From: a virus
Lineage: Duplodnaviria > Caudoviricetes
Virus record (IMG/VR): IMGVR_UViG_3300025389_000011
Length of the DNA stretch: 64,000 nucleotides
Direction: 5' to 3' (one strand)
The notes below the pieces were generated by a model. The model ran no database searches. It was not told the DNA's origin and was given only the letters and a program-made list of their open reading frames with translations. How positions within the stretch are numbered: the stretch's first letter is position 1; each line of letters begins with the position of its first letter. The position numbers were made by a program, and so were the translations under genes. This document shows, in pieces, positions 32,544 to 49,191 of the stretch.

Positions 32544-32544
32544 A

Positions 32545-35367: not shown

Positions 35368-35368
35368 C

Positions 35369-35917
35369 ATGGATAAGATTGATACATTAACATTATCAAC
35401 AGAAAATAAAACCGAATTCATTGACAAACTAACTAATGGATTACTAGAATTTTTTGAAACTGATAGCGTAGACAACTTTCATGAAAACTATGGTTATCAA
35501 TTGCCATGGAGTTTACTTAGTTTGATTCGTGATGACAAGATAGACACATATACATTGGTATATGTTAACGATAGAATTTGGGGTGGTAGTGGTGGAATGA
35601 TACGAGACATGGATAGCAAAAAAGTTTATCAAGGTGGGTTTCGTTGGTTCTCAAATGCAAAAAATCATGTTAGTGGTTTAGGTTATATGAAAACCTATAT
35701 ACACACATATACCATGACTGACCAATTTATCAGAGCAAAAGAACAAAACTGTGAACAGTACATTTTATCATTCAATACGTACAATGATAGATTTTTTAAG
35801 ATAAGTAAAAATTATCACTTGAGAAAAGCATTCCCTGATGTTGTGTTTAAACCCAGTGATGGTCATGTGATGTTCAATGGTGTCATGCAACAGATATTAA
35901 TTGTGGATTTAAAATAA
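35369..35917 (+). CDS. Hypothetical protein (possibly GNAT-like)
   Basis: WGGSGG...YQGGFRWF pattern; fold uncertain. Confidence 0.45.
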   Translation: MDKIDTLTLSTENKTEFIDKLTNGLLEFFETDSVDNFHENYGYQLPWSLLSLIRDDKIDTYTLVYVNDRIWGGSGGMIRDMDSKKVYQGGFRWFSNAKNHVSGLGYMKTYIHTYTMTDQFIRAKEQNCEQYILSFNTYNDRFFKISKNYHLRKAFPDVVFKPSDGHVMFNGVMQQILIVDLK

Positions 35918-35918
35918 C

Positions 35919-36557
35919 ATGTTTACTATAATCAAAGACTGTAGTCCATATTATATAACGTTTACATACGAAGGATTACCTGAATACATTAAGCTATTAC
36001 AAAGTATTGCCAATAAGTCAGAGTTTGTTGTATCTAATAATAAAAGCGTTACCGCAATTCAAGAAATAGTTCCTAGTTATCAAACAAAAGAATTTTATGT
36101 AAAGGATGAAAAAGATTTGTCTTTGGTTATAGATAACAACCCAGTTAAACGTTTGTTGAACTTAGATAAAAGCGCGGCTTTTTTAACAACACTCCCAGGC
36201 GTTAAAAGTCCTATACATCTTGACATAAACGGTGCAACTAATAAACCTGTACAATTTAGAATTAACTATCCCATTTTTGTCCATGACACTAATTGCATTA
36301 CAAGCTGGTACTCATCAGATGGTATTGTTCCGCATGAAAAAATATCATATATAGCTGACCCTACGTTAAGTACTCCAAACCGATTAGAATCTTTGTGTTT
36401 TTCTCAAGAGTATGCTATATTATTTAACACAACAATATACCATGATTGGGACAACACAACAAGTACCAATGACAGAACTATAATTGGAATGAAGGCAGAT
36501 AAGAATCAACACAATACAACGTATGAGGATGCAAGAAAAATTTTATTTGGAATCTAA
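35919..36557 (+). CDS. Cupin/2OG-Fe(II) oxygenase-like
   Basis: PIHLD, RINYPI, FNTTIYHDW, RTII. Confidence 0.6.
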   Translation: MFTIIKDCSPYYITFTYEGLPEYIKLLQSIANKSEFVVSNNKSVTAIQEIVPSYQTKEFYVKDEKDLSLVIDNNPVKRLLNLDKSAAFLTTLPGVKSPIHLDINGATNKPVQFRINYPIFVHDTNCITSWYSSDGIVPHEKISYIADPTLSTPNRLESLCFSQEYAILFNTTIYHDWDNTTSTNDRTIIGMKADKNQHNTTYEDARKILFGI

Positions 36558-36558
36558 G

Positions 36559-37209
36559 ATGAGTATTAATTTATTATTTGCAACGGTTGATTTGCCACCA
36601 ATCAACAAACAACAAGCAGTTAAAGAAATAGAACCTTTACTAAACACAGATGCTGTGTTTTGGGATGCCTATAGAGAAATCAGTATGATTCCCTTAGTAA
36701 CTAAGACGGGACAACTAGGTGCTGAAAGCATATCTAATCGTCATCAAGGTGAGTTTGTTTGGGCTAGTCACACTCCTCCTACTATCAAAGAATACTTTGA
36801 CAATGTTGTGTTTCCTTGGATAGGTATGCGTAGTAGATTAATGATTCTTATCACTCAACCAGGTGCAAAGAATGCAATACACATAGACAGTAAGATACAT
36901 GAAGTGGGTACAAAGAAACATAAGTTTCGTATTGTGTTGCAAGGACGAACTGATACATTATTCTTTAGAACAAAGACAGGTGACGTTCATGTTCCAGAAG
37001 TAGACGGTGCATTCTTAATGGATGGTAGTTGGGTTCATGGTATGGACAATGAAACAGACAACGTAAAATTGACACTAGCATTGGGTAGCCCCTGGGAAGG
37101 ATTCGATGAGTATGGCCCGGAAGTAAAAATCCTTATGGACCGTAGAGACTATCAACTACCTGACAACCTCAGTCAATACGAAGAAAAACCCGGGACCGCT
37201 ACGTATTAG
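36559..37209 (+). CDS. Cupin/2OG-Fe(II) oxygenase-like
   Basis: AIHID and DGSWVHGMDN. Confidence 0.6.
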   Translation: MSINLLFATVDLPPINKQQAVKEIEPLLNTDAVFWDAYREISMIPLVTKTGQLGAESISNRHQGEFVWASHTPPTIKEYFDNVVFPWIGMRSRLMILITQPGAKNAIHIDSKIHEVGTKKHKFRIVLQGRTDTLFFRTKTGDVHVPEVDGAFLMDGSWVHGMDNETDNVKLTLALGSPWEGFDEYGPEVKILMDRRDYQLPDNLSQYEEKPGTATY

Positions 37210-37229: not shown

Positions 37230-37258
37230 TTGACAATATATCAAGACTTTGCTATACT
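37230..37258 (+). promoter_or_regulatory. Sigma70-type promoter upstream of the leader/RNA island
   Basis: TTGACA-17nt-TATACT. Confidence 0.85.
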
Positions 37259-37325
37259 ACACGTAATGAATCAAAAAGGAGTACTTATTTGTACTAATTT
37301 GTAAACAGGGATAAATAACTATACT

Positions 37326-37481
37326 ATGAAACATATTAACTGTCAATTGCTGAACCATACGATAGCATCAATGCAGATGCCATTGGCAGCCTTTGAGGGT
37401 AAAAATATCCCAAGTATTCGCTGGTCATATAATGATACAAGTTTACGTAGGGGTTTCATAGCAGGAGTCAGTTACACTTAA
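37326..37481 (+). CDS. Putative attenuator leader peptide, 51 aa
   Basis: MKHINCQLLNHTIASMQMPLAAFEGKNIPSIRWSYNDTSLRRGFIAGVSYT, starting 8 nt after ATAAATA; contains the antiterminator strand 37449-37460. Confidence 0.6.
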   Translation: MKHINCQLLNHTIASMQMPLAAFEGKNIPSIRWSYNDTSLRRGFIAGVSYT

Positions 37482-37504
37482 AGTAACACTCTAACAAGTT
37501 TATG

Positions 37505-37544
37505 AAACCCCTGAAGATGAAAGTTTTCAGGGGTTTTTGTTTTT
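37505..37544 (+). terminator. Intrinsic terminator, mutually exclusive with the antiterminator 37449-37460/37501-37512
   Basis: AAACCCCTGAAGA-tgaaag-TTTTCAGGGGTTT 13-bp stem followed by TTGTTTTT. Confidence 0.9.
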
Positions 37545-37555
37545 ATGAAAGGAAA

Positions 37556-37732
37556 ATGATGGAGTATAAAAATATAGATTATACTAAATTAAACGAACAA
37601 ATTGTTAAACAGGCTTTTGCTTCCGCTAGTCAGTTCTTAACTGAAGAACAGAAACAAAAACTTATTGATGATAAGTTTAAACGTGCTGAAGCATACATCC
37701 AAGCTAGGAAAAAAATTCCTAATTTAGTGTAA
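37556..37732 (+). CDS. Small hypothetical protein downstream of the attenuator
   Basis: 58 aa with AAAGGA RBS. Confidence 0.6.
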   Translation: MMEYKNIDYTKLNEQIVKQAFASASQFLTEEQKQKLIDDKFKRAEAYIQARKKIPNLV

Positions 37733-37739
37733 CTTAGTA

Positions 37740-37956
37740 CAACGTGTGCATAGGAAACGAGGTCCTAGCCCGCACGTAAAACATGGGCAAACGGGCGGAC
37801 AGTAGGATGAAATCTGTGGCGATAACGCAGAGACTAAAATCACTGGTTGGGGTATCGACCCCAACATAACGCAAGAAATTGCGTTATTCACTAGTACTTT
37901 GTGAGAACAACGCCCTGACCCCTGAAAGGTTAAGCATAGAGTACTAATGAATAACA
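37740..37956 (+). ncRNA. Unassigned structured RNA
   Basis: Stems ACGTGTG/CGCACGT, TAGG/CCTA, TCTGT/GCAGA, GTTGGGG/CCCCAAC and a long GTTATTCAcTAGTACT/AGTACTAaTGAATAAC hairpin. Confidence 0.55.
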
Positions 37957-37960
37957 AAAA

Positions 37961-38659
37961 TTAAATACAGAATTCTTTAAAGAGTTCGTATCCTTGTTCC
38001 CATGTAGATATCTGTTCTAAGGGAAAACGATAGCTTAATCCAGCTCTATACTCTGCACCTGGTGGATAAGTTACACTATGTGGTACAGTTGGGTTTACCA
38101 AAGTTGTACAATGTCTTTTAAGTGTATATGTGTGTAAACGTTCAAAGTTATGTGCAAAGTTTACTGTTATTGGTTCTACATTACCGTACCAGCAACCTCT
38201 AATTCTAGTTCTAGGTTCGTTTGGTCTAACTGTTTTGACATCAGAATACCATTCTTTAGCACCAGCTACGTCCCACCATTTGAATTCTGCATCGGTTTCA
38301 GAAAGTTCCCAGTTGATAGAAAAGGGTATCTTTACCCATTTGCCATCAACTTCAAAAACATCACTATGAACAATGTCCGGAAAGTTAGGATATAAATCTC
38401 TACGTGCATGTCCAAATACAAGGACCCACATAGGTGTTAGATTTTTTGATTTAAAAATTTCTGATAATTCTGGATTTATAATAGTATCAATAATTTCAGT
38501 AGAGCCAACATAAAGAAATTTTCTTCCTTGTATTGGTTCTCCTTTACCAGCTGCCTTATCTGTATTGATTAAGTCAATACATGATGGATCCTTTAATGGA
38601 TATGGTAATTTTACTTCTGCTTGATATTTAGGTATAGTCATACAGTATTTATCAAGCAT
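37961..38659 (-). CDS. Cupin/2OG-Fe(II) oxygenase-like, inserted antisense within the RNA island
   Basis: IVHSD, FSINWEL, NPTVPHSV, RAGLSYRF; similar motif order to 35919-36557. Confidence 0.6.
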   Translation of the reverse strand: MLDKYCMTIPKYQAEVKLPYPLKDPSCIDLINTDKAAGKGEPIQGRKFLYVGSTEIIDTIINPELSEIFKSKNLTPMWVLVFGHARRDLYPNFPDIVHSDVFEVDGKWVKIPFSINWELSETDAEFKWWDVAGAKEWYSDVKTVRPNEPRTRIRGCWYGNVEPITVNFAHNFERLHTYTLKRHCTTLVNPTVPHSVTYPPGAEYRAGLSYRFPLEQISTWEQGYELFKEFCI

Positions 38660-38679
38660 GTAACTAATAATAAAAATAT

Positions 38680-38756
38680 GCTCCCGTAACTCAGTGGATT
38701 AGAGTACTGTGCTACGAACGCAGGAGTCGGAGGTTCGAACCCTTCCGGGAGCGCCA
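38680..38756 (+). tRNA. tRNA-Arg(ACG)
   Basis: Full cloverleaf, loop CT-ACG-AA, encoded CCA. Confidence 0.95.
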
Positions 38757-38764
38757 AAGAATAT

Positions 38765-38840
38765 ACCCTCTTCGCCAAGTTGGTAAGGCATCGGATTTTG
38801 ATTCCGACATGCGGTGGTTCGAGTCCATCAGGGGGTGCCA
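38765..38840 (+). tRNA. tRNA-Gln(TTG)
   Basis: Cloverleaf, TCGGA/TCCGA stem, CCA. Confidence 0.93.
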
Positions 38841-38841
38841 A

Positions 38842-38917
38842 GGTAATATAGCATAGCGGCTAATGCAACTGCTTCATACGCAGTCTATCGATGGTTCGAG
38901 TCCATCTATTACCACCA
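38842..38917 (+). tRNA. tRNA-Met(CAT), probably elongator
   Basis: Cloverleaf, G1-C72 paired, CCA. Confidence 0.85.
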
Positions 38918-38923
38918 ATCATT

Positions 38924-39000
38924 GCCTCAATAGCTCATTTGGTTAGAGCACCGTCTTGATAAGGCGGGGGTGCCTAGTTCGAATCTAGGTTGAGGCACCA
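38924..39000 (+). tRNA. tRNA-Ile(GAT)
   Basis: Cloverleaf, CCA. Confidence 0.95.
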
Positions 39001-39004
39001 ATAT

Positions 39005-39080
39005 GCCGATGTAGCTCAGTTGGTAGAGCACCTGTCTGAAGAACAGGGTGTCGCAAGTTCAACTCTTGCCGTCGGTACCA
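39005..39080 (+). tRNA. tRNA-Phe(GAA)
   Basis: Cloverleaf, CCA. Confidence 0.95.
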
Positions 39081-39249
39081 AACAATTCTAATTGAACAAA
39101 TTCATTTGCTAGTTCACTTGTTAGAATAGGATCAAGAACAAATTCTTTACTGTTTGTATAAGATGCACGTGCCTTATACTTTTCATCAGAAAAGTGTTTA
39201 TACAATAACATAAATTCTGTATATTCATTAGAGTTCATAATGTATTTAT

Positions 39250-39327
39250 GCCCCCGTGGACAAATTGGCAAAGTCGTTTCTCTCAAAAGGAAAAATTTTC
39301 TCCGTTCAACTCGGAGCGGGGGTACCA
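39250..39327 (+). tRNA. tRNA-Leu(CAA) with an unusually short variable region
   Basis: GCCCCCG/CGGGGGT acceptor, loop CT-CAA-AA, variable segment AATTTT only. Confidence 0.85.
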
Positions 39328-39563
39328 GTATTTCAACATCCGACCTAACGCTGGCAACAGAGGAAGTTCGGGACTTGTGGCAAGTGCGAGTGGGAGAAAT
39401 TTACTTTGTTATTTGTCTGAAATTTACTTTGTTATTTCGTTAAACCACCGTGATATAACAAGCAACACAAACAGAATCAGGTAACACTTGCACTATTGGT
39501 TCGGGTTGTGGCAAAGATTAATGTTAGGATAGAACAGAATCCCGGCTACGGGGTGTTGAATAT
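39328..39563 (+). ncRNA. rnpB: Minimal RNase P RNA (catalytic domain retained, specificity domain replaced)
   Basis: CR-I GAGGAAGTTCGGGAC (39360-74) pairs with CR-V ACAGAATCCCGGCTA (39534-48) to form P4 with a bulged U. P1, P2, P3, P5, P6, P7, P15 and P16 all pair. J5/15 CAA, AGATTAA (CR-IV-like) and L15 GGT are present. Confidence 0.9.
39396..39437 (+). repeat. 19-nt direct repeat GAAATTTACTTTGTTATTT x2 inside the RNase P RNA
   Basis: Identical copies at 39396-39414 and 39419-39437. Confidence 0.95.
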
Positions 39564-39564
39564 T

Positions 39565-39656
39565 GCCAGCGAGACTTGGAAGTCAGAGAGGTCTTATAAG
39601 CCTTTTAGCGCCAGATTAGCGTTCTTGAGTGGGTTCGATTCCCACCGCTGGTACCA
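39565..39656 (+). tRNA. Non-canonical tRNA, anticodon TAT (Ile?), long variable arm
   Basis: 7-bp acceptor, TTCGATT T-loop, CCA; 4-nt D-loop, extended anticodon stem, 5-bp variable stem. Confidence 0.65.
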
Positions 39657-39661
39657 GTTAT

Positions 39662-39737
39662 GGTGATTGTAGCTCAATGGTAGAGTCCAGGATTGTGATT
39701 CCTGTTGTTGTGGGTTCGAATCCCATCAGTCACCCCA
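39662..39737 (+). tRNA. tRNA-His(GTG) with encoded G-1
   Basis: Cloverleaf with extra G-1:C73 pair, CCA. Confidence 0.95.
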
Positions 39738-39801
39738 AAATTACATTATAAAATAAATTATTCTATTATACATGATAAATAGTATAACAAAGGACAATAA
39801 T

Positions 39802-40200
39802 ATGCCAAAATACACAAAATACACCCTAGTCACTTTTGCGGTTACAGATTTTGAAGAATTTAGTGATTCTATAAAATCTTTTAACAAAGATTCTTTAGTA
39901 AAATTAAAAGAACATGCAAGTTCCGGTATAATGCACACAGCATTACATACTGGTGACAATGGCGGACTCAAAAGATATTGGATAGACCAAGCCGCGGCTG
40001 AAGCATGGAAATCATTTTTATTACAATCAGCAGAAAAATACGGTGTTGAGATTACTAGCATTGAAATAGGTGATAATGATACTGACCCCGTTGATGAATT
40101 GCTAACCGGAACAACCCCTGATACACCAGCAACACCGGCAACATCAGATACTCCAACAACGTCGGATACACCAACAACTCCGGATACTAAAACTGTTTAA
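39802..40200 (+). CDS. Hypothetical protein (paralog of the next gene), TPxTP tail
   Basis: KYTKYTLVTF...KRYWIDQAAAEAW...EKYGV. Confidence 0.75.
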   Translation: MPKYTKYTLVTFAVTDFEEFSDSIKSFNKDSLVKLKEHASSGIMHTALHTGDNGGLKRYWIDQAAAEAWKSFLLQSAEKYGVEITSIEIGDNDTDPVDELLTGTTPDTPATPATSDTPTTSDTPTTPDTKTV

Positions 40201-40208
40201 GGACATTA

Positions 40209-40514
40209 ATGGAATATACTAAGTATACAATCGTTACATTTACGAATCCAAAAACTCATTTCGATGATAAGTACTCTGATAATGAAGTTGAGTTTATAAA
40301 TGATACTTTTGCTAAAGCTGCCTTAATGACAAGTCAAGATAAAACCCCAGGCTACCATGAATTTGCTGGCGCTGGCTGTGTTAAGCGTATTTGGAAAGAC
40401 CAAGCCGCGGCAGAAGAATGGAGAGACTTTATATTTGCTACCGGAGAGAAGTATGGTGTTAAATTGTCTAGCGTAGAAATATTTGATGCTACCGAAGAAG
40501 ACAATGATATATGA
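40209..40514 (+). CDS. Hypothetical protein (paralog of the previous gene)
   Basis: EYTKYTIVTF...KRIWKDQAAAEEW...EKYGV. Confidence 0.75.
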   Translation: MEYTKYTIVTFTNPKTHFDDKYSDNEVEFINDTFAKAALMTSQDKTPGYHEFAGAGCVKRIWKDQAAAEEWRDFIFATGEKYGVKLSSVEIFDATEEDNDI

Positions 40515-40566
40515 AATATTAGTGTCACTATATTTGGACTAAGTATTATCATTAAGGTACCAATGT

Positions 40567-41622
40567 ATGGCAAAAGTATTGTTCATTTTAAAACGCAGAG
40601 AAGATTACCATAGCGTACTACATTCGCATATTGGATTAAGCACTGGCTTATACAATTCAGCTAGTTTTATGAATGACATGCTAGTTGATGCTAATGTAGA
40701 ATCAAATTTAGTTGTTGTGCATGATAACAACTGCATTGACCGAGAAGTTAACAAATATAAACCAACACACGTAATTATTGAGGCACTATGGGTAGTGCCC
40801 ACTAAGTTTGCTGTGCTGTGTAAACTACACCCCAACGTTAAATGGATCATTCGCATACATAGCGAAATGCCTTTCATGGCAGGTGAGGGTATGGCAATGG
40901 ATTGGATTGCCGAGTATAGTAGTTACAAAAACATTATTTTAGGTATCAACGCACCTAGAATGTTAGATGAAGTGCAAACATATTTAAAAGTCCGCAATAG
41001 TTGGACTGATAAAGAAACAAATGAACGAGTAATTTATTTACCTAACTATTATCCACAAGACTACGTATCAAAGAAATTTGATAGAAACAAAGAATATATT
41101 GACATAGGTTGTTTTGGTGCAGTAAGACCATTAAAGAACCACATGGTTCAAGCAGTGGCCGCATTGGATTTTGCAAATCGCATTGGTAAGAAATTAAGAT
41201 TTCACGTTAATGCAGGTCGTATTGAAATGAACGGTGGACCTGTTATTAACAATCTAAAAGGATTTTTTGAACAACTAGCAGATACAGGTCATCAATTGAT
41301 TAATCACCAATGGACACCTAGAGAACAATTTCTAGAGTTGTGTGCTAGTATGGATATAGGACTACAAGTTAGTTTTAGTGAAACATTTAATATTGTTGGT
41401 GCAGACTTGATTAGTCAAGGTGTACCGTTAGTTGGTAGTAGTGAAATACCTTGGTTTGTACCAATGTTTGCCGCACATGCTACTGAAAGTAAAATGATTG
41501 CTGATAAGTTATTATCAACGTACAAAACCCCATGGCTAAATGCCAAACTAAATCAATGGTCTTTGACTAATTACACAAATAAAACAAAAAATATTTGGGT
41601 TAAATACTTTACAGGAGAGTGA
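40567..41622 (+). CDS. Glycosyltransferase-like (GT-B/GT4-like)
   Basis: IGCFGAVRPLKN, DIGLQVSFSETFNIVGAD...GVPLVGS. Confidence 0.7.
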   Translation: MAKVLFILKRREDYHSVLHSHIGLSTGLYNSASFMNDMLVDANVESNLVVVHDNNCIDREVNKYKPTHVIIEALWVVPTKFAVLCKLHPNVKWIIRIHSEMPFMAGEGMAMDWIAEYSSYKNIILGINAPRMLDEVQTYLKVRNSWTDKETNERVIYLPNYYPQDYVSKKFDRNKEYIDIGCFGAVRPLKNHMVQAVAALDFANRIGKKLRFHVNAGRIEMNGGPVINNLKGFFEQLADTGHQLINHQWTPREQFLELCASMDIGLQVSFSETFNIVGADLISQGVPLVGSSEIPWFVPMFAAHATESKMIADKLLSTYKTPWLNAKLNQWSLTNYTNKTKNIWVKYFTGE

Positions 41623-41626
41623 AACA

Positions 41627-41815
41627 ATGGCAAAACATAGGGTTAGAACGCATGACTGGGTCAATGGTATTTTAGAAACAAGAGATATCTTTTTTAATAG
41701 TTTTGTTTCAGCATTAGAATTTACGCAACGTGTTAAATCACATCATGTAAAAATTTATAATGATGTGGGTAATTTATTGCATGATTCAGGATCAATGACA
41801 GATACTTACGCATAG
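41627..41815 (+). CDS. Small hypothetical protein
   Basis: 62 aa with AGGAGA RBS. Confidence 0.6.
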   Translation: MAKHRVRTHDWVNGILETRDIFFNSFVSALEFTQRVKSHHVKIYNDVGNLLHDSGSMTDTYA

Positions 41816-41818
41816 ATT

Positions 41819-41893
41819 GAATTCTTAGTTCAATGGATAGAACACCATGTTCCGATCGTGGAAATGCGGGTTCGATTCCTGCAGAATTCACCA
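41819..41893 (+). tRNA. tRNA-Arg(CCG)
   Basis: Cloverleaf, CCA. Confidence 0.9.
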
Positions 41894-41917
41894 ACATAGT
41901 CTAAGAAAGGAATAAAC

Positions 41918-42478
41918 ATGTCTGTGTTAACTTTAGATATATCTGGTATACCAAGACAATGGATTTCAAATGATGAAGCTATTACATATCACGCAAAAAA
42001 TGCGGTGGCTTGGGCACTAGGAGAAGTAATTGCAAAATATCGTGGTGGAACACAACGTGACGGTCAAACAAGTTATTTAGAAACAACAAGTATTATTGCT
42101 GTTAAAGGACACGGATTTAATCCATACAAACATGCAAATGTTGCACTAAGTAACAAAACATTATTTGGTCGGGATAGGTACGTGTGTGCATATTGCGGGG
42201 GACACTTCCCGAATTATCATCACCTTAGCAGGGACCATATTGTCCCTAAATTTTTGGGTGGTGAAAACACATGGATGAATGTTGTTACTGCATGTAAAGA
42301 ATGTAACAGCAAAAAAAGCCATAAAACATTGAAACAAGCACGTATGGAATTACTATATGTGCCATATGTTCCAAATCACTACGAAAACATGATTCTACAA
42401 AACCGCACAATACTTGCGGATCAAATGGAGTACCTATTAGCAGGTGTTCCAAAACACAGTAGAATTCTCCTAAATTAG
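41918..42478 (+). CDS. HNH endonuclease (McrA-like)
   Basis: LFGRDRYVCAYCG, SRDHIVP...GG..W.NVVTACKECNSKK. Confidence 0.9.
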   Translation: MSVLTLDISGIPRQWISNDEAITYHAKNAVAWALGEVIAKYRGGTQRDGQTSYLETTSIIAVKGHGFNPYKHANVALSNKTLFGRDRYVCAYCGGHFPNYHHLSRDHIVPKFLGGENTWMNVVTACKECNSKKSHKTLKQARMELLYVPYVPNHYENMILQNRTILADQMEYLLAGVPKHSRILLN

Positions 42479-42488
42479 CACGACACGG

Positions 42489-42517
42489 TTGACAAAATAA
42501 TTTTGTCGTGCTATACT
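42489..42517 (+). promoter_or_regulatory. Sigma70-type promoter
   Basis: TTGACA-17nt-TATACT upstream of tRNA-Thr. Confidence 0.85.
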
Positions 42518-42534
42518 CTGTTAAATAATAGTAT

Positions 42535-42610
42535 GCCCTTATAGCTCATTTGGTAGAGCAACTGATTTGTAATCAGTAGGTGCCGTGTTCGAATCATGGT
42601 GGGGGCACCA
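42535..42610 (+). tRNA. tRNA-Thr(TGT)
   Basis: Cloverleaf, CCA. Confidence 0.95.
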
Positions 42611-42615
42611 AATAT

Positions 42616-42691
42616 TGGCCTATAGCTCAGTTGGTAGAGCAACGGACTGTTAATCCGTGTGTCCCTGGTTCGAGCCCAGGTAGGCCAGCCA
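42616..42691 (+). tRNA. tRNA-Asn(GTT)
   Basis: Cloverleaf, CCA. Confidence 0.95.
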
Positions 42692-42712
42692 AACAACATA
42701 GAGGATATTACA

Positions 42713-43096
42713 ATGGGACTTTTTTCAAAATTCAAAAATATAGAAACTTCATTCGTTAATGAAGTTGAACACTTAGAACAGGTTATTGTGGCAGATGCAA
42801 AGGGTCTTTTTGAAAAAGCCCGCCAAGAGGCATTATCCGCTAATGATGAGGTCAACAGACTAAAAACAGAATTACAAACGGCATTAATTAAAGCACGTGA
42901 TTTACACGAGGTTGCAATGAAAGCCGCTAGTGATGCTGTGCAACAAGCAGAGGCTGATGTTGTAAGATTTAAACAAGCTGTTATTGCTCATGGCAATGAC
43001 CTAAAAACTCAGGCAAGTCAAATCGTCACACCACCCGCTCCAGTCGCTACAGCCGATACAACCGACCCTATAGCAAACGCTGTACCCGGACAATAA
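42713..43096 (+). CDS. Coiled-coil hypothetical protein
   Basis: GAGGA RBS; Ala/Glu-rich heptads. Confidence 0.7.
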   Translation: MGLFSKFKNIETSFVNEVEHLEQVIVADAKGLFEKARQEALSANDEVNRLKTELQTALIKARDLHEVAMKAASDAVQQAEADVVRFKQAVIAHGNDLKTQASQIVTPPAPVATADTTDPIANAVPGQ

Positions 43097-43106
43097 AACA
43101 AAATAC

Positions 43107-43149
43107 TTGACAATAATTAAACCCTAGTATATACTAGGGTTTTGTTTTA
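43107..43149 (+). promoter_or_regulatory. Sigma70 promoter whose -10 lies inside a 24-bp palindrome followed by a T-tract
   Basis: TTGACA(43107)-17-TATACT(43130); AAACCCTAGTATATACTAGGGTTT at 43119-43142. Confidence 0.75.
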
Positions 43150-43151
43150 CT

Positions 43152-43228
43152 CCGGCGGTAGCTCAATTGGATAGAGCATCGGTCTTCTACACCGAGGGTT
43201 GGGGGTTCGAATCCCTCCCGCCGGGCCA
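43152..43228 (+). tRNA. tRNA-Arg(TCT)
   Basis: Cloverleaf, CCA. Confidence 0.93.
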
Positions 43229-43231
43229 CTA

Positions 43232-43403
43232 TGTTGTAAAAATACAACATCTAAGTATTTGACAAATAATCAGTTTAGTTATACAATACTTACATGAGTT
43301 GAGAAATTGATTCAGATTAATTGGTAAAAGATTGTTGTAGAAATACAAAAAATCATTTGACAATAAATCAAGGTAGTGATACAATCATTACATGAGTTGA
43401 GAA
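43232..43403 (+). promoter_or_regulatory. Two tandem sigma70 promoters, each with an upstream TGTTGTA-N4-TACAACA-type palindrome
   Basis: TTGACA 43259 / TACAAT 43282 and TTGACA 43357 / TACAAT 43380; both followed by ATGAGTTGAGAA. Confidence 0.85.
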
Positions 43404-43467
43404 GTTATCAAACTTTTTAACGTGTTCTTTAAAAAATTAAGTTTCATATATCATCTTGAATTCAAGG

Positions 43468-43704
43468 TGTTATATGTAAGTATGGTAAAGGTTACCTATA
43501 CCGTTAGGGGCTTTGTGCGGGAAGATGTATCGACGGATACACCCAATAGTCAGAGTTTATGAAGCGTATGAACGATAGTTTAGGCTATGCAGTTGAACGT
43601 GACGGAAGAATATAGGCAGTAATGACCGTGCAGGCTTACGTGGAGACGTTCCCGTAAGTAGAGATAGATGCACAATGGTTCCTTTAGTTTACTTACATAT
43701 AACA
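43468..43704 (+). ncRNA. Unassigned structured RNA closed by a perfect 15-bp terminal stem
   Basis: TGTTATATGTAAGTA/TACTTACATATAACA with nested TAAAGG/CCTTTA, TTGTGC/GCACAA and CGGGAA/TTCCCG. Confidence 0.65.
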
Positions 43705-43710
43705 GTTTAT

Positions 43711-43844
43711 GCTCAGATAGTTCCACGCAAAGTTCGCAACTTTGGTCCACGGTGAGTTCGCAACTCATGGCAGTTGGAGAGGTAAACACCCCCGCTACAG
43801 GGGGTCTCCAGTGAAAGAAGGTGCAAATCCTTCATAGAGCGCCA
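43711..43844 (+). ncRNA. tRNA-like structured RNA ending in a T-arm and GCCA
   Basis: GAAGG-TGCAAAT-CCTTC T-arm, 3' AGAGC-G-CCA pairing with 5' GCTC, twin GTTCGCAAC hairpins. Confidence 0.6.
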
Positions 43845-43895
43845 TTTAAGGCAGTTTCAGATAGTGACCTGAAATCGTAAGTCCAATCTAACAAT

Positions 43896-43971
43896 GCTCG
43901 GTTCGTCTAGAGGCCTAGGACAACGCCCTTTCACGGCGTGAACAGGGATTCGAATTCCCTACCGAGTACCA
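43896..43971 (+). tRNA. tRNA-Glu(TTC)
   Basis: Cloverleaf, CCA. Confidence 0.95.
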
Positions 43972-43981
43972 ATCATTGATT

Positions 43982-44067
43982 GGATAGTGAGTAGCATTGG
44001 CGACTACAGTGGACTGTAAATCCACCACCTTACGGTATACGGGGTTCGAATCCCTGACTATCCACCA
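43982..44067 (+). tRNA. tRNA-Tyr(GTA)
   Basis: Type II cloverleaf, CCA. Confidence 0.93.
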
Positions 44068-44074
44068 AGAACAT

Positions 44075-44151
44075 GCACCGTTAGCGCAGTTGGTTAGCGC
44101 ACCGCCCTGTCACGGCGGGGGTCAGGGGTTCGAGTCCCCTACGGTGCGCCA
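44075..44151 (+). tRNA. tRNA-Asp(GTC)
   Basis: Cloverleaf, CCA. Confidence 0.95.
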
Positions 44152-44355
44152 GAATTTTGCGAGTGTCAGCAAGAGAAAGTCACGTTACCAAGGCTAGTTC
44201 GAACAGCCTAGTAGTGTAAAGCAACGGGGGGCGCAAAACCCTAGCAAAAATATAGACACGTTGGACCGGTATCCCAAGTGACAGACTGCCCCCGTCCGGA
44301 CTAGTTAATTCGGGTGAAGCGTTGAGATAACAGCGGCTCAACTACTTACAAATTC
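44152..44355 (+). ncRNA. Unassigned structured RNA with a probable pseudoknot
   Basis: Terminal stem GAATTT/AAATTC; AGGCT/AGCCT, CCGGA/TTCGG and GTTGAG/CTCAAC hairpins; crossing GTCAC/GTGAC and GGGGGC/GCCCCC pairs. Confidence 0.6.
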
Positions 44356-44423
44356 ATTATTAGGTAAACACAATAAAGTATCATTTATTTGTGTTTAGCA
44401 TAAATAATCATATAGGAGATTAT

Positions 44424-44855
44424 ATGATTGATATTACTGAATTTATAAATAGACCTCGTGACGAAAGAAGGTCCCATCTAAATTTAGATGAACCCTGTTG
44501 TGAACGCGGTGGTAATTCCACCAATCACAAAGGTGTTTTAGCACAGTTTTTAGACTCAACTATTCCGTCAGGAAGAATTCTGTTATGTCACGCATGTAAT
44601 AATAATAAATGTTCTAACCCAAAACACTTGTATTGGGGAACAGACTATGATAATATTATCATTGATGGCTCAGAGTTCGGAACACATAAAAATCCTTTTG
44701 AACGCCGTGTTGAAAAATATGGTTTAGAAAAGGCTAGTGCAATGAATAGCAGAGTAGGCAATAATAATGGTTCTGGTAATAAGGGTAAACCTAAATCAGA
44801 AGAACACAAGAAAAATATTGCGGAAGCAATTAAAAGAAAGTATAATAAACAATAG
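44424..44855 (+). mobile_element. Free-standing HNH homing-endonuclease-like gene with a NUMOD3-type tail
   Basis: LLCHACNNNKCSNPKHLYWGT; C-terminal GNKGKPKSEEHKKNIAEA; lies between RNA genes. Confidence 0.75.
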
Positions 44856-44862
44856 ATTAATT

Positions 44863-44947
44863 GCCCGGGTGGAGAAATGGTATACTCAGAAGACTTAAAA
44901 TCTTCCGCTGTAATGGCATGCCGGTTCGAGTCCGGCCCCGGGCACCA
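44863..44947 (+). tRNA. tRNA-Leu(TAA)
   Basis: Type II cloverleaf, CCA. Confidence 0.95.
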
Positions 44948-44953
44948 AGTTAT

Positions 44954-45030
44954 GGGCCCTTAGCTCATTCGGTTAGAGCAGTGGACTCATAATCCATTGG
45001 TGGTGTGTTCGAATCACACAGGGCCCACCA
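44954..45030 (+). tRNA. tRNA-Ile2(CAT), lysidine type (or Met)
   Basis: GGGCCCT acceptor and CT-CAT-AA loop resemble bacterial ileX. Confidence 0.8.
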
Positions 45031-45049
45031 AATTGATAGTATGATTATT

Positions 45050-45144
45050 GGAGACGTGGGTGAGCCGGTTTAAACCACCTTCCTGCTAAGAAGACGTATG
45101 AGCAAAAACTTGTACCGAGAGTTCGAATCTCTCCGTCTCCGCCA
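45050..45144 (+). tRNA. tRNA-Ser(GCT)
   Basis: Type II cloverleaf, G73, CCA. Confidence 0.92.
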
Positions 45145-45157
45145 ACAATATTTTTTC

Positions 45158-45235
45158 GGTGAGGTGGCAGAGCGGCCCAATGCAAGGGATTGCAAATCCC
45201 TAAAACCGTGAGTTCAAATCTCACCCTCACCTCCA
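45158..45235 (+). tRNA. tRNA-Cys(GCA)
   Basis: Cloverleaf, U73, CCA. Confidence 0.95.
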
Positions 45236-45254
45236 ACAACTTTAGGAGAATTGA

Positions 45255-45389
45255 ATGGCTAATGTAAAGCAAGGCAATTTAACAAAGAGTCCTCAATGGT
45301 GGAAACATCTTAAGGATTGGAAGCGTGTGTTCTGGAAATCAGAACGACAAGCACAAAAGAGAGAAATCAAGGTTGACAACAATACCTAA
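45255..45389 (+). CDS. Small basic Trp-rich protein (44 aa)
   Basis: AGGAG RBS; MANVKQGNLTKSPQWWKHLKDWKRVFWKSERQ. Confidence 0.65.
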   Translation: MANVKQGNLTKSPQWWKHLKDWKRVFWKSERQAQKREIKVDNNT

Positions 45390-45489
45390 TTGTTGTATAA
45401 TAATTTTTTAAACGAAAGAGGTAATGACATGAAACGAAGTAAACGATAGTGTCATTCTTAGACTTCCAAGTATGGTCTAGGGATGGCAC
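45373..45489 (+). promoter_or_regulatory. Sigma70 promoter + micro-ORF MKRSKR + 15-bp hairpin upstream of two tRNA-Lys genes
   Basis: TTGACA 45373 / TATAAT 45396; GAGGT RBS; ATG 45429 to TAG 45449; hairpin 45449-45489. Confidence 0.6.
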
Positions 45490-45515
45490 GTAAAAGAAAA
45501 ATCTAATACTGCTAT

Positions 45516-45590
45516 CCCTTCGAGATGTTACGGTAGCATACCGGACTCTTAATCCGAGAAGACTGAGTTCAATTCTCAGCGGAGGGACCA
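45516..45590 (+). tRNA. tRNA-Lys(CTT)
   Basis: Cloverleaf with one anticodon-stem mismatch, CCA. Confidence 0.85.
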
Positions 45591-45596
45591 TATTAT

Positions 45597-45672
45597 GGAA
45601 GCATAACTCAATGGCTAGAGTATCCGGCTTTTAACCGGAATGTTGTGGGTTCGAGTCCCACTGCTTCTACCA
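45597..45672 (+). tRNA. tRNA-Lys(TTT)
   Basis: Cloverleaf, CCA. Confidence 0.95.
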
Positions 45673-45742
45673 TATAAAAACACATTCGCAACCAAATGGG
45701 AGTGAAATATCCGCGGGGAGTGTGTTTCTATATGGTATTATT

Positions 45743-46015
45743 GGAAATGTGGCAGAGTCCGGTTTATTGCTTTTGAGTTGATTGTGTATAAATAAAGTTA
45801 TGAATACTTATATGAAAAAGATTTAAAACCTGTACTTGAATATGTTAAAAACAAATATGGGAAAGACTTTATAAGTCTTTATGAATAATGGAGGGCCAAA
45901 CCGACTGGTGACGGTAACGGTCTTGAAAACCGCCGAGTGTTAATAGCGCCTTTAGAGTTCGACTCTCTAGCCCTCCGCCAAAGTAGGAAAAAGGTAAATC
46001 TCACCGTTTCCGCCA
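45743..46015 (+). pseudogene. Split tRNA-Ser remnant (5' piece 45743-45770, 3' piece 45997-46015) with an endonuclease-gene scar
   Basis: GGAAATG pairs with CGTTTCC-G-CCA; the anticodon and variable arms are missing. Confidence 0.7.
45890..45980 (+). tRNA. tRNA-Ser(TGA)
   Basis: Type II cloverleaf, G73, CCA. Confidence 0.92.
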
Positions 46016-46022
46016 AGATAAT

Positions 46023-46096
46023 GTCTCTCTGATGTAATGGCAGCATAGCGGTCTCCAAAACCGTTCGTTGGGGTTCGAGTCCCTAGGGGGACGCCA
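46023..46096 (+). tRNA. tRNA-Trp(CCA)
   Basis: Cloverleaf, CCA end. Confidence 0.93.
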
Positions 46097-46100
46097 AATT

Positions 46101-46174
46101 GCGGGGTTCGTATAGTGGTAATACCTTAGCCTTCCAAGCTAATGCTGAGAGTTCGATTCTCTTACCCCGCTCCA
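46101..46174 (+). tRNA. tRNA-Gly(TCC)
   Basis: Cloverleaf, U73, CCA. Confidence 0.95.
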
Positions 46175-46203
46175 AACACTAAATAGTTAACAGGAGATTA
46201 ACT

Positions 46204-46380
46204 ATGGATGATACGTTAAAACAAGAAATTAAACAATACTTAAAAGAAAATTTAAGTTTAGAAATATCACAAATCGCTGATATATATGAAATCAACCCAG
46301 ATGAAGTAAAAATCAATATTTTACTTGAGGGCGAAGTGATAGCAAGTGGGAAAATTAACCCAACATACGATTGGAGTTAA
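46204..46380 (+). CDS. Small acidic hypothetical protein (58 aa)
   Basis: AGGAGA RBS after a CTAAATA motif. Confidence 0.6.
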   Translation: MDDTLKQEIKQYLKENLSLEISQIADIYEINPDEVKINILLEGEVIASGKINPTYDWS

Positions 46381-46381
46381 G

Positions 46382-46410
46382 TTGACAAATTGATATTGAC
46401 ATGATACAAT
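46382..46410 (+). promoter_or_regulatory. Sigma70-type promoter
   Basis: TTGACA-17-TACAAT upstream of tRNA-Leu(TAG). Confidence 0.8.
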
Positions 46411-46424
46411 TCATGTTAGTTAAT

Positions 46425-46507
46425 GCCCCGATGGTGGAACTGGTAGACACGAAGGTCTTAGAAGCCTTTTCTTCGGAGTGCGAGTTCGAGTCTCGCTTGG
46501 GGCACCA
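46425..46507 (+). tRNA. tRNA-Leu(TAG)
   Basis: Type II cloverleaf, CCA. Confidence 0.93.
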
Positions 46508-46516
46508 AAAAGTTTT

Positions 46517-46592
46517 GGGGGTGTAGCTCACCTGGGAGAGCGACTGGTTTGCAACCAGTAGGTAGCGGGTTCGAGTCCTGTCACCTCCACCA
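46517..46592 (+). tRNA. tRNA-Ala(TGC)
   Basis: Cloverleaf, G3:U70, CCA. Confidence 0.95.
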
Positions 46593-46598
46593 AGATAT

Positions 46599-46673
46599 CG
46601 TGGGGTGGAGAAGTAGTATCTCATCAGTCTCATAAGCTGAAGAACGGCGGTGCGATTCCGTCCCCCGCAACCA
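46599..46673 (+). tRNA. tRNA-fMet(CAT)-like initiator
   Basis: C1xA72 mismatch, CT-CAT-AA loop, CCA; lacks the 3 G-C anticodon-stem pairs. Confidence 0.8.
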
Positions 46674-46677
46674 GTTT

Positions 46678-46754
46678 CGGAGTGTGGCGCAGTCTGGTAG
46701 CGCACCTGGTTTGGGACCAGGGGGTCCAAGGTTCGAATCCTTGTACTCCGACCA
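46678..46754 (+). tRNA. tRNA-Pro(TGG)
   Basis: Cloverleaf, CGG start, CCA. Confidence 0.95.
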
Positions 46755-46775
46755 AGTTTTTTATAAGGAAAATAA

Positions 46776-47045
46776 ATGCAAGTAAGAGCAAGTCATATTT
46801 TAGTGCCAACCCTGGCAGAGGCAGTAAACTTAAAAGAACAAGTCAGTAAAGGTGCAGATTTTGCACAATTGGCAAAACAACACAGCAAGTGCCCTAGCGG
46901 CCAAAATGGTGGAGATTTAGGACCTTTTGGTCGTGGCATGATGGTTAAGCCATTTGAAGATGTAGCATTTGGTAGTGATGTGGGTGTAACCAGTGGTCCA
47001 GTGCAGACACAATTTGGTTATCATTTAATTAAAAGAACAGCGTAA
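46776..47045 (+). CDS. ppiC: Parvulin-type peptidyl-prolyl isomerase
   Basis: ASHILV, FAQLAKQHSKCPSG..GGDLG.F.RG.MVKPFE, VQTQFGYHLI. Confidence 0.95.
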   Translation: MQVRASHILVPTLAEAVNLKEQVSKGADFAQLAKQHSKCPSGQNGGDLGPFGRGMMVKPFEDVAFGSDVGVTSGPVQTQFGYHLIKRTA

Positions 47046-47054
47046 GGAAATAGT

Positions 47055-47222
47055 ATGACATGTAGAGGCTATGATGCTAAGGCAGTAAAAATTTCAAAAC
47101 AAGTTAAGCGTACCGCGGCACAATATCTTGACCCACATTTGCGTGGAGCAATTATTCGTAGTTTTGTTGAAATTGAAAAATCAGGACTACGTTCAGTACG
47201 TAAAGATAAGGATAGCAAGTAA
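47055..47222 (+). CDS. Small basic hypothetical protein (55 aa)
   Basis: AAGGA RBS; MTCRGYDAKAVKISK. Confidence 0.6.
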   Translation: MTCRGYDAKAVKISKQVKRTAAQYLDPHLRGAIIRSFVEIEKSGLRSVRKDKDSK

Positions 47223-47401
47223 TGAGTAAAGGTAGCAGACCACGTCCATATAGTGTTGATTTAAAAACATTTGACAATAACTGGGATATGATTTTCCGCA
47301 AGCCTGATCCAAGAGTAATTGAAGATGCTAAATTGGAAGATGAGGCATTTCAAGAAATTACTAAACAAACAGAAGTTAAAGATAGCCAGCAAGGGGGCTA
47401 A
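47222..47401 (+). CDS. Small hypothetical protein (59 aa)
   Basis: TAATG coupling; MSKGSRPRPYSVD...FDNNWDMIF. Confidence 0.6.
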   Translation: MSKGSRPRPYSVDLKTFDNNWDMIFRKPDPRVIEDAKLEDEAFQEITKQTEVKDSQQGG

Positions 47402-47411
47402 ATAGATTTAT

Positions 47412-47487
47412 ACCTGGTTAACTCAGTTGGTAGAGTGTCTGCCTTACACGCAGAATGTCGGCGGTTCGAACCCGTCACCAGGTACCA
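47412..47487 (+). tRNA. tRNA-Val(TAC)
   Basis: Cloverleaf, CCA. Confidence 0.95.
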
Positions 47488-47494
47488 AGTATTT

Positions 47495-47570
47495 GCGGGA
47501 TTAGCTCAGTTGGTAGAGCGAGTGCTTGCCAAGCACTAGGTCGTCAGTTCGAACCTGATATCCCGCTCCA
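47495..47570 (+). tRNA. tRNA-Gly(GCC)
   Basis: Cloverleaf, U73, CCA. Confidence 0.95.
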
Positions 47571-47587
47571 AATAATTAAAGGAAAAT

Positions 47588-47869
47588 ATGTCATCAATAT
47601 CATCTAGATATACGAGCGAAAAGGCAGTAGACAAAGTAGGTAATAGATTTGATTTAGTTCTTATTGCATCGTTAAGGGCAAGAGAATTAACAATGGGTCA
47701 TCCAACTAAATTAACTGATCCTGGATTTAATCCTAATGAAATGCCTAAACCAATGACAATTGCAATACGAGAAATTGAAGAAGGTTTAGTAGGTAGAGAA
47801 TACTTAGATGTTTATAAAGACAGCGAAAGTCAACGTAAGAAAAATAATATACGTTATACTGAAATATAA
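47588..47869 (+). CDS. rpoZ: RNA polymerase omega subunit homolog
   Basis: NRFDLVLIASLRAREL...KPMTIAIREIEEGLV matches the omega signature. Confidence 0.85.
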   Translation: MSSISSRYTSEKAVDKVGNRFDLVLIASLRARELTMGHPTKLTDPGFNPNEMPKPMTIAIREIEEGLVGREYLDVYKDSESQRKKNNIRYTEI

Positions 47870-48502: not shown

Positions 48503-49174
48503 TTATCTTTCACCTGGCTTTAAATAGTCTTCACCTCTAAGCAAATCCCAAGGTCTAGATTTTTCTACAACAGGACCTGTATAGGTTTTCCAAGAACGAC
48601 CTATCAAACATGATCTGATGCCGCTTTCTAATCTAGTAACTCTATGCATATAGTTTGATGGAAAGAACACTCCTGTACCAAATGTTCTACTAACATGATG
48701 GTCTTCAACATACAAGTCACCGCCTACATAGTCATCACTATCTGCTAACTGAATAATTAAATTCATTTTTCTTTCTTCAGTTTCTTCAAAGTTTAAACAA
48801 CCGTCGTGATGCACATCAAAACAATCCCCTTCTTTATACATTTTTATTTCATAAGGCTCTAGGTACAATATTTCGTAATTATTTTGTTGTGCGTTTAGTG
48901 TCCAAGCATCTTGCAATAATTCATAAATACCATTATCGTAACCGTGTACGTTCATAGTTTCATGTACATGGCATGTGTAAAATCCCGAAACTCCGTCTTT
49001 GGTATTAGGGGTTCGTCTATGTAATCCTGATGCTATTTCGTCAACTGCATATTTTTTTAAATTTTCTCCCATCTCCCTACTAATCATATTAGGTATTTCA
49101 ATGATAGTGTTATAATCAATGTGTTCTGGTGTTGGTGATAAAATAGCTTTAGGTTTTCGTTTTATTGGGTACAT
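48503..49174 (-). CDS. 2OG-Fe(II) oxygenase (prolyl-hydroxylase-like)
   Basis: FDVHHDG, RKMNLIIQL, YVGGDL, FFPSNYMHRV, GIRSCL. Confidence 0.85.
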   Translation of the reverse strand: MYPIKRKPKAILSPTPEHIDYNTIIEIPNMISREMGENLKKYAVDEIASGLHRRTPNTKDGVSGFYTCHVHETMNVHGYDNGIYELLQDAWTLNAQQNNYEILYLEPYEIKMYKEGDCFDVHHDGCLNFEETEERKMNLIIQLADSDDYVGGDLYVEDHHVSRTFGTGVFFPSNYMHRVTRLESGIRSCLIGRSWKTYTGPVVEKSRPWDLLRGEDYLKPGER

Positions 49175-49191
49175 GCATATATTTAGTAAAC

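Follow-up and report, generated by a model that had tools for sequence, protein, structure and literature searches.

A 10.6-kb island at positions 37230-47869 of a 64,000-nucleotide stretch of phage DNA (IMG/VR virus record IMGVR_UViG_3300025389_000011; hereafter the window) is, taken as a whole, best explained as an early-expressed phage transfer RNA (tRNA) operon that carries its own ribonuclease P (RNase P) RNA, a switch in the leader of its tRNA-Lys genes and a cargo of further genes that assort independently. We give this reading a probability of roughly 0.7. Judged from their sequences, the most remarkable items of the island are the virus-encoded, miniaturised RNase P RNA and a micro open reading frame (micro-ORF) whose switch lies over an RNase P site. 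The window is part of a large phage and also encodes head-decoration and head-like proteins, both ribonucleotide reductase subunits, an ORF of 3103 codons and, one after another, a number of small paralogous genes. The island was compared with the nearest relative fetched, IMG/VR contig 3300032215_000333 (L149/L153), to which its identity is 75-100%; a near-identity search of a phage collection returned tRNA fragments only and no close relative.

The RNase P RNA, 229 nt long, is not reported by Rfam at the gathering score. With Rfam in E-value mode, positions 39332-39560 match the archaeal RNase P model RF00373 over the full model length (35.4 bits, E = 3e-7), and the universal blocks GAGGAAGUUCGGG, AGCAA, AGAUUAAUG and ACAGAAUCCCGGCUAC can be read in this segment. 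Two motif scans of IMG/VR yielded at least 40 family members (37 distinct) of 200-860 nt that hold both conserved region (CR) I and CR-V. For the covariation test, 18 compact members in an unfitted MAFFT alignment were scored for a hand-drawn RNase P fold and compared with 500 shuffles. In this fold 88% of the cells are paired, as opposed to 33-46% when the partners are slid, compensatory change is seen in 34 of the 48 pairs, and none of the shuffles attains the observed value. P3, P5, P15 and P16 are recovered by RNAalifold unaided. The minimum-free-energy fold of the RNA alone is not distinctive (z -1.45), so that the support is comparative and not energetic.

The helix P4, which joins CR-I to CR-V, has all eight of its pairs formed in 18 of 18 sequences; seven are invariant and one alternates only between U-G and C-G. 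P4 crosses P2, a trait of all RNase P RNAs, and an unpaired, bulged U at alignment column 57 is invariant as well. Equally invariant (18/18) is the GGGU immediately 5' of the 3' strand of P15; in Escherichia coli the GGU at this P15-loop position binds the CCA of the tRNA. A P6 pseudoknot pairs GCAAGUG of J5/7 (39380-39386) with CACUUGC of the P17 loop (39485-39491), and at least ten complementary versions of it were found by eye in the family. The specificity domain of the window copy is limited to a P10/11-like helix, a variable P12 slot and a CR-III-like stretch, and P8, P9, P13, P14 and P18 are not present. On RF00010, larger family members reach 189, 165 and 124 bits, the cut-off of 100 being passed by the relatives L133, L096 and L103, and others score 82, 63 and 37 bits. 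Because the larger members score as bacterial class A, the window copy can be placed at the reduced end of a continuum that starts at ordinary type A. RF00010 fails on the reduced RNAs in five records where the motif scans had located them, and therefore standard annotation misses them. By these comparisons the window RNA is a structurally intact RNase P RNA homologue, predicted to retain the whole type A catalytic domain together with a stub of the specificity domain. An RNase P RNA among the tRNAs had been proposed in an original prediction made from the window alone, and the Rfam match and the covariation bear it out.

With the bacterial class A RNA (M1 of E. coli, rnpB; RF00010) the phage RNA shares P1-P6, P15-P17, the P4 pseudoknot with its bulged U, the AGCAA of J5/15, the CCA-binding GGU ahead of P15, and CR-IV. 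Unlike that RNA, it measures 229 nt instead of ~377 nt, is without P8, P9, P13, P14 and P18, has a P3 of only 3 bp, scores below the cut-off, and is virus-encoded inside a tRNA array with no rnpA partner gene in the relatives. Its size is that of the archaeal type T minimal RNase P RNA of Pyrobaculum and the Thermoproteaceae (~200 nt; Lai et al. 2010, cited in PMC7191817), which is likewise a natural RNA that keeps the catalytic domain and has lost most of the specificity domain. Type T differs in that it works with archaeal proteins and has wholly lost P11, P12 and CR-II/III, whereas the phage RNA has the bacterial GGU, P6 and a P10/11-P12 stub with the CR-III-like UAAACCACC, so that the likeness is one of size only. 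A catalytic domain by itself still cleaves (PMC5839562).

In the window, the P12 slot is filled by a perfect 18-nt direct repeat, AAATTTACTTTGTTATTT (39397-39414 and 39420-39437, with 5 nt between), which is retained as sequence in L003, L010, L107 and L127 and is not a hairpin. In other phages this slot is occupied by a tRNA-like insert that includes a T-arm and ACCA (L004:338-688, L027:5478-5829, L091:7451-7752), an ORF-like insert with a Shine-Dalgarno site (L106, about 5500-5675, minus strand) or ~600 extra nt (L009:6-868). Among the matches listed, tRNAs are present in 37 of 39 RNase P RNA loci, always on the same strand as the RNA; the distance between the two is 9 nt or less in 21 loci, and up to 32 tRNAs occur within 9 kb. 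A sub-threshold match to transfer-messenger RNA (39.7 bits) lies inside one such array (L133:698-773). The RNase P-bearing arrays of three other phages include tRNAs with a CUA anticodon, that of amber suppressors (L001:6836-6910, L003:4321-4395, L014:1747-1821), which hints at stop-codon recoding there; the 64-kb window has no CUA tRNA.

The second element is found ahead of the tRNA-Lys pair and consists, by comparative prediction, of a conserved micro-ORF and two mutually exclusive helices. Segment 2 of the switch begins on the stop codon of the micro-ORF, while segment 4 spans the RNase P site (between 45515 and 45516), tRNA-Lys(CUU) beginning at 45516. A pattern scan that allowed 13 lengths and fixed the first and last codons located the element in at least 120 IMG/VR contigs. 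Among the matches listed, the micro-ORF is in frame in 98 of 103, and tRNA-Lys is the first tRNA to follow in 89 of 95 cases, 80-99 nt away. One peptide is encoded by several synonymous DNA variants, and AAA is the commonest codon of the micro-ORF. Over 49 diverse sequences, pairing reaches 85% in helix 2:3 and 77% in helix 3:4 (28-52% when slid), with compensatory changes in 8 and 7 pairs, respectively, and for each helix the covariation score was reached by 0 of 500 shuffles. One column of segment 3 covaries with both alternative partners, the three positions reading U,A,U in 21 sequences, A,U,A in 8 and C,G,C in 3. Helix 3:4 covers the precursor from -9 to +3, RNase P site included; it has no U-tract or terminator tail and ends in the tRNA nucleotides +1 to +3. 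Of the translation-responsive leader that had been predicted, the structure (a conserved micro-ORF and bistable helices over the RNase P site) is upheld and the regulatory logic is a model.

Leader-peptide attenuators (trp, his, pheST) share with the Lys leader a short ORF rich in codons of the pathway and mutually exclusive helices; in the Lys leader, unlike the attenuators, the output helix spans an RNase P site, there is no terminator and the regulated genes are tRNAs. An output helix that covers the 5' leader of a pre-tRNA is also a feature of a synthetic RNase P riboswitch (PMC7897497). In open-access papers and preprints we found no natural example of such a leader switch at an RNase P site and no description of a micro-ORF ahead of tRNA genes. 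Alternatively, the micro-ORF would simply encode a small peptide, or would be an RNA motif, and would have no regulatory link to tRNA maturation, which would agree with the weak support for helix 1:2, with the absence of a terminator and with a search pattern that preset the first and last codons. We consider this unlikely in view of the tRNA-Lys that comes next in 94% of cases at a fixed distance, and of the covariation of segment 3 both with segment 2 (on the stop codon) and with segment 4 (over the cleavage site).

For the operon as we read it, we propose that host RNA polymerase would produce long precursors, in which RNase P would cut the 5' end of each tRNA and thereby separate the units; the same cutting would also free the RNase P RNA itself and the mRNA of the RNA polymerase omega subunit encoded at the end of the array. 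In E. coli, RNase P suffices to separate polycistronic tRNAs that are tightly spaced (PMC2190699). Because RnpA is apparently not phage-encoded, the phage RNA is assumed to team with the RnpA of the host, and it would add to or retune the 5'-processing capacity for the burst of phage pre-tRNA. At the Lys leader, a ribosome at the micro-ORF stop would cover segment 2, whereupon segment 3 would pair over the cleavage site and maturation would be blocked. A ribosome stalled on Lys/Arg codons would instead let helix 2:3 form and free the site, which would provide feedback on the supply of tRNA-Lys. That the phage controls its own tRNA maturation through both a viral RNase P ribozyme and a micro-ORF switch gating tRNA-Lys cleavage by Lys/Arg decoding is a tentative proposal, which we hold to be possible and would not call probable.

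Could the RNase P RNA be a passenger, that is, a mobile or decaying host copy that recombination or homing endonucleases have spread and that plays no part in tRNA processing, or serves only as a decoy for host RnpA? Such an origin would suit its patchy distribution. Using a covariance model of the 3' half (R1) and a local nhmmer profile, both of which could miss very divergent RNase P RNAs, we found the RNA in 1 of 13 omega-bearing records and in 1 of 74 Lys-leader loci of at least 8 kb (median 21 tRNAs). It was not found in three omega-bearing records that are 92-100% complete and contain 23-33 tRNAs, nor in a relative whose NrdA is 86% identical and whose array holds 29 tRNAs. HNH endonucleases and gene-sized indels throughout the array, as well as the tRNA-like and ORF-like inserts taken up by the P12 slot at other loci, likewise suit a passenger. 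On the other hand, all elements of the catalytic core are invariant or compensated over at least 18 diverged members, and the RNA is more conserved than its flanks: 231 of 237 positions are identical between the window and L149, compared with ~78% in the adjoining gap. The six differences (a GNRA-loop change, one unpaired base, one compensatory pair and two wobbles) preserve the fold. No endonuclease gene stands next to the RNase P RNA in the window either, and we regard this explanation as improbable, more so than that of a mere peptide gene.

The least probable alternative is the one in the original prediction, a co-evolved, self-contained module that lets tRNA maturation and translation persist after the host's RNA processing has been shut down. 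A full set of CCA-encoding tRNAs, an RNase P RNA, a translation-sensing leader, omega and a parvulin do lie inside 10.6 kb, with a Pnk-like kinase and a phosphoesterase close downstream. Self-containment fails on the parts that are missing: a search for RnpA (PF00825) found none in 12 related phage records, of which three are complete genomes with the RNA, and was positive in 10 bacterial controls, and the island has no aminoacyl-tRNA synthetase, no 3' exonuclease and no modification enzyme. Across relatives the RNase P RNA is also largely unlinked to tRNA number, contrary to the module idea, since the omega-bearing relatives with 23-33 tRNAs, a close relative with 29 and 73 of the 74 Lys-leader arrays are without it; records with the RNA have 42-56 tRNAs, in a sample picked by the RNA itself. 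Inactivation of host RNase P, and with it the upkeep of translation under a shut-down of host RNA processing, is not supported.

In L149, the closest relative, the 30 tRNAs recur in an unchanged order, and the cargo between them differs by whole genes. The HNH-like gene, the parvulin and the cargo ORF of 42489-43228 are absent from L149, in which other inserts are present, and the cargo stretch 39772-42478 has lengths of 2081 and 1460 nt in the window and the close relative, respectively. The parts assort independently among relatives, and therefore the array is probably a hot spot that collects cargo related to RNA and translation and not a co-inherited, self-sufficient unit. We thus view the island as a mosaic early tRNA operon that gathers RNA-related cargo.

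Several points weigh against an operon with its own RNase P RNA and Lys-leader switch. The Rfam score of the window RNase P RNA, 35 bits, is under any gathering cut-off, and the absence of RnpA rests on the records of relatives, not on the window's own genome. Most related arrays are without the RNase P RNA, which is therefore dispensable. In the Lys leader, helix 1:2 shows little covariation, the direction assigned to the feedback belongs to the model, and, as helix 3:4 has no terminator tail, we infer its output (blocked processing). A boxA-like stretch upstream of the structured RNAs fits UGCUCUUUAACAA at 11 of 13 positions, and four such matches occur in the window compared with 3.7 expected.

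The number of tRNAs in the island, their CCA ends and their amino-acid coverage correspond to what had been predicted. ARAGORN gives exactly 30 tRNA genes, every one on the + strand and confined, over the 64-kb window, to 38680-47570; all 30 encode the 3' CCA, 20 amino-acid identities are represented, and 28 of the 30 are supported by Rfam at the gathering score. Position -1, just ahead of the mature tRNA, is a T in 27 of the 30, and the spacers inside sub-clusters measure 1-13 nt. Three tRNAs have a CAU anticodon, and the one at 46599-46673 shows the C1xA72 mismatch of bacterial initiators, in agreement with the formylmethionine-like species proposed. Seven sites on the + strand fit TTGACA-17-TATAAT at 11-12 of 12 positions (37230, 42489, 43107, 43259, 43357, 45373 and 46382), four of them 8-20 nt upstream of a tRNA; the tRNA strand thus has at least seven predicted near-consensus promoters of the sigma70 type. 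In large phages such as the T4-like ones, tRNA clusters are same-strand and early, contain small stable RNAs (rnaC and rnaD in T4) and are processed by host RNase P; T4 has 8 tRNAs and is not known to carry an RNase P RNA. The island shares with these clusters a same-strand array interspersed with homing endonucleases and small non-tRNA RNAs, and differs from T4 by its full set of 30 tRNAs, the ribozyme gene, the micro-ORF switch, omega and parvulin. The coordinates of all features are given in Table 1.

Table 1. Features of the island and of its RNase P RNA (positions in the window; nt, nucleotides; aa, amino acids; PPIase, peptidyl-prolyl isomerase)
Feature	Position	Strand	Remarks
Left-edge unit: sigma70-type promoter 37230-37258, 51-codon ORF 37326-37481, intrinsic terminator 37504-37547	37230-37547	+	promoter fits 11/12 positions
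tRNA-Arg(ACG), Gln, Met(CAU), Ile(GAU), Phe, Leu(CAA)	38680-39327	+	spacers 1-8 nt except for the 169-nt gap 39081-39249
RNase P RNA	39332-39560	+	between tRNA-Leu(CAA) and tRNA(UAU)
RNase P RNA elements P1, P2, P3, P5, P15, P16/17	within 39332-39560		P3 with GCAA loop
RNase P RNA, CR-I	39360-39374		
RNase P RNA, CR-III-like stretch	39439-39449		mini specificity domain
RNase P RNA, GGGU	39503-39506		
RNase P RNA, CR-IV	39515-39523		
RNase P RNA, CR-V	39534-39549		
tRNA(UAU), then tRNA-His	39565-39737	+	tRNA(UAU) atypical, 92 nt
Cargo genes (142, 101, 351, 62 aa), tRNA-Arg(CCG) 41819-41893, HNH homing endonuclease 41918-42478	39772-42478	+	cargo genes with no assigned function
Promoter 42489-42517, tRNA-Thr, tRNA-Asn, cargo ORF, promoter 43107-43135, tRNA-Arg(UCU)	42489-43228	+	
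Tandem promoters 43259-43287 and 43357-43385, boxA-like stretch 43423-43435	43259-43435	+	hairpin before each promoter
Non-coding RNA, 237 nt	43468-43704	+	24-bp closing stem
Multi-hairpin RNA	43711-43895	+	tRNA-Glu, Tyr, Asp next, 43896-44151
HNH-like endonuclease 44391-44855, tRNA-Leu(UAA), Met(CAU), Ser(GCU), Cys	44391-45235	+	
tRNA-Lys unit: promoter, Shine-Dalgarno site, micro-ORF, switch segments, tRNA-Lys(CUU), tRNA-Lys(UUU)	45373-45672	+	
tRNA-Lys promoter	45373-45401	+	perfect match
Micro-ORF MKRSKR-stop	45429-45449	+	ATG AAA CGA AGT AAA CGA TAG; Shine-Dalgarno site upstream
Switch segments 2 (45449-45463), 3 (45475-45492), 4 (45506-45518)	45449-45518	+	leader 45402-45518
CCA-anchored hairpin, 20 bp	45668-45737	+	5' arm starts in ACCA end of tRNA-Lys(UUU); fold z -4.65, 0/200 shuffles as stable
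tRNA-Ser(UGA), Trp, Gly(UCC), 58-codon ORF 46204-46380, promoter 46382-46410, tRNA-Leu(UAG), Ala, initiator-like Met, Pro	45890-46754	+	
Parvulin-type PPIase 46776-47045, small conserved ORFs 47055-47222 and 47222-47401	46776-47401	+	
tRNA-Val, tRNA-Gly(GCC), omega (RpoZ) homologue 47588-47869	47412-47869	+	

At the left edge, the terminator 37504-37547 has a 15-bp stem followed by a T-run and the ORF 37326-37481 is kept at 86% in relatives; the segment 37230-37547 is a separate small early unit. The atypical tRNA(UAU) at 39565-39656 (fold z -3.2) has an anticodon stem of 7 bp, a D-loop of only 4 nt and an extended variable arm, and is conserved in L149, L150, L151, L003 and L014. It is unusual as an Ile tRNA, and Rfam gives a weak likeness to tRNA-Sec. 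The gap 39081-39249 between tRNA-Phe and tRNA-Leu has the same length, 169 nt, in a relative, with substitutions distributed over the codon phases as 7/10/20. The case is ambiguous: the phase bias points to a minus-strand ORF of 55 codons, yet the identity at the amino-acid level would be only 50%. The gap 46175-46424 was rejected as an RNA candidate, as it contains the 58-codon gene 46204-46380 with a codon-phase bias of mismatches of 3/21/6.

The original prediction also included four structured RNAs, given without coordinates; supported elements were found at 43468-43704, 43711-43895, 45402-45518 and 45668-45737. In the first of these, a 24-bp stem pairs 43468-43491 with 43681-43704. The core of this stem-closed RNA is retained in the more distant phage L160, where the closing stem differs and is still complementary. 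The RNA at 43711-43895 consists of two UUCGCAAC-loop hairpins and a T-arm-like hairpin followed by GAGCGCCA, and shows compensatory changes relative to L149. A tRNA-like reading of 43711-43838 was not upheld, for the T-arm-like hairpin and GAGCGCCA are present and no acceptor stem is predicted. The 510-nt stretch with both non-coding RNAs has no codon-phase bias in comparison with L149 (25/25/27). Ahead of it, the tandem promoters at 43259 and 43357 each fit 11 of 12 positions, in a segment conserved in L149 and L160, and the boxA-like stretch TGTTCTTTAAAAA (43423-43435), 38 nt past the second promoter, is identical in both. The E. coli rrn operons have tandem promoters, then a boxA antitermination leader, and their first RNA is enclosed by an RNase III stem. 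The island recalls this layout in its order of tandem consensus promoters, boxA-like stretch, RNA in a 24-bp stem and tRNAs, but the boxA match of 11/13 is not significant by count and the enclosed RNA is a 237-nt orphan instead of a ribosomal RNA.

Among the proteins, the predicted omega and parvulin belong to their families by profile scores well over the cut-offs, as had been expected. Omega (47588-47869; PF01192, 52.7 bits, cut-off 26, E = 4e-14) begins 18 nt past the last tRNA and aligns to residues 2-75 of E. coli omega (E = 1e-14). The idea that it lacks the ppGpp-contacting N-terminus is not supported, because an Arg and a Thr align with R3 and T5 of E. coli behind a 4-residue extension. 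Homologues were found in 22 viral loci; same-strand tRNAs are near in 16 of these, and in 7 omega follows a tRNA at 18-49 nt. The parvulin (46776-47045) matches PF00639 over residues 14-88 of 89 (80 bits, cut-off 21.7, E = 2.6e-22). It is found near omega in six omega loci (L155-L158, L160 and L174), is also present in L151, and does not occur in the closest relative L149. Nothing relevant on phage omega or parvulin was found in open-access papers and preprints.

The HNH endonuclease 41918-42478 (Pfam HNH_5, E = 1.3e-16) is 96% identical in L149 and 83-84% in more distant arrays, with the surrounding genes replaced, and probably behaves as a mobile element. The HNH-like gene 44391-44855, which is not in L149, matches PHROG endonuclease families. 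Downstream of omega, at 1.4-2.5 kb, lie a P-loop kinase related to polynucleotide kinase (49238-49708; PF13671, phrog_505) and a phosphoesterase (50394-50987; phrog_547, E = 3e-47), which could be RNA end-healing enzymes; no ligase was present among the genes scanned. The same region contains a 2-oxoglutarate-Fe(II) oxygenase (48503-49198, minus strand) and a homologue of D-Ala-D-Ala carboxypeptidases (Peptidase_S11, 50987-51733). Upstream of the island, ~14 consecutive same-strand ORFs of 174-234 codons (28623-37209) may form a paralogous gene array; the one ORF of that run searched, 36523-37209, matches nothing in Pfam or PHROG.

RNase P RNA is taken to be a ribozyme common to all cells, and a viral, naturally miniaturised, bacterial-type version of ~200-230 nt would alter its known occurrence. 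In open-access papers and preprints we found no description of an RNase P RNA from a phage or other virus, and two broad jumbo-phage reviews mention neither RNase P nor omega. The family escapes standard annotation and can be found by the motifs and alignments used here. A miniature viral RNase P RNA would also offer a natural minimal scaffold for probing the purpose of the specificity domain. The micro-ORF switch, in turn, would be a natural case of translation controlling the 5' processing of tRNA, a translation-coupled gating that we did not find described. If the proposal is true, the phage could sense a loss of tRNA-Lys, for instance one caused by a PrrC-type anticodon nuclease, and respond by releasing further tRNA-Lys of its own. 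The question of why phages carry tRNAs would then become testable, as tRNA supply would be linked to the sensing of depletion.

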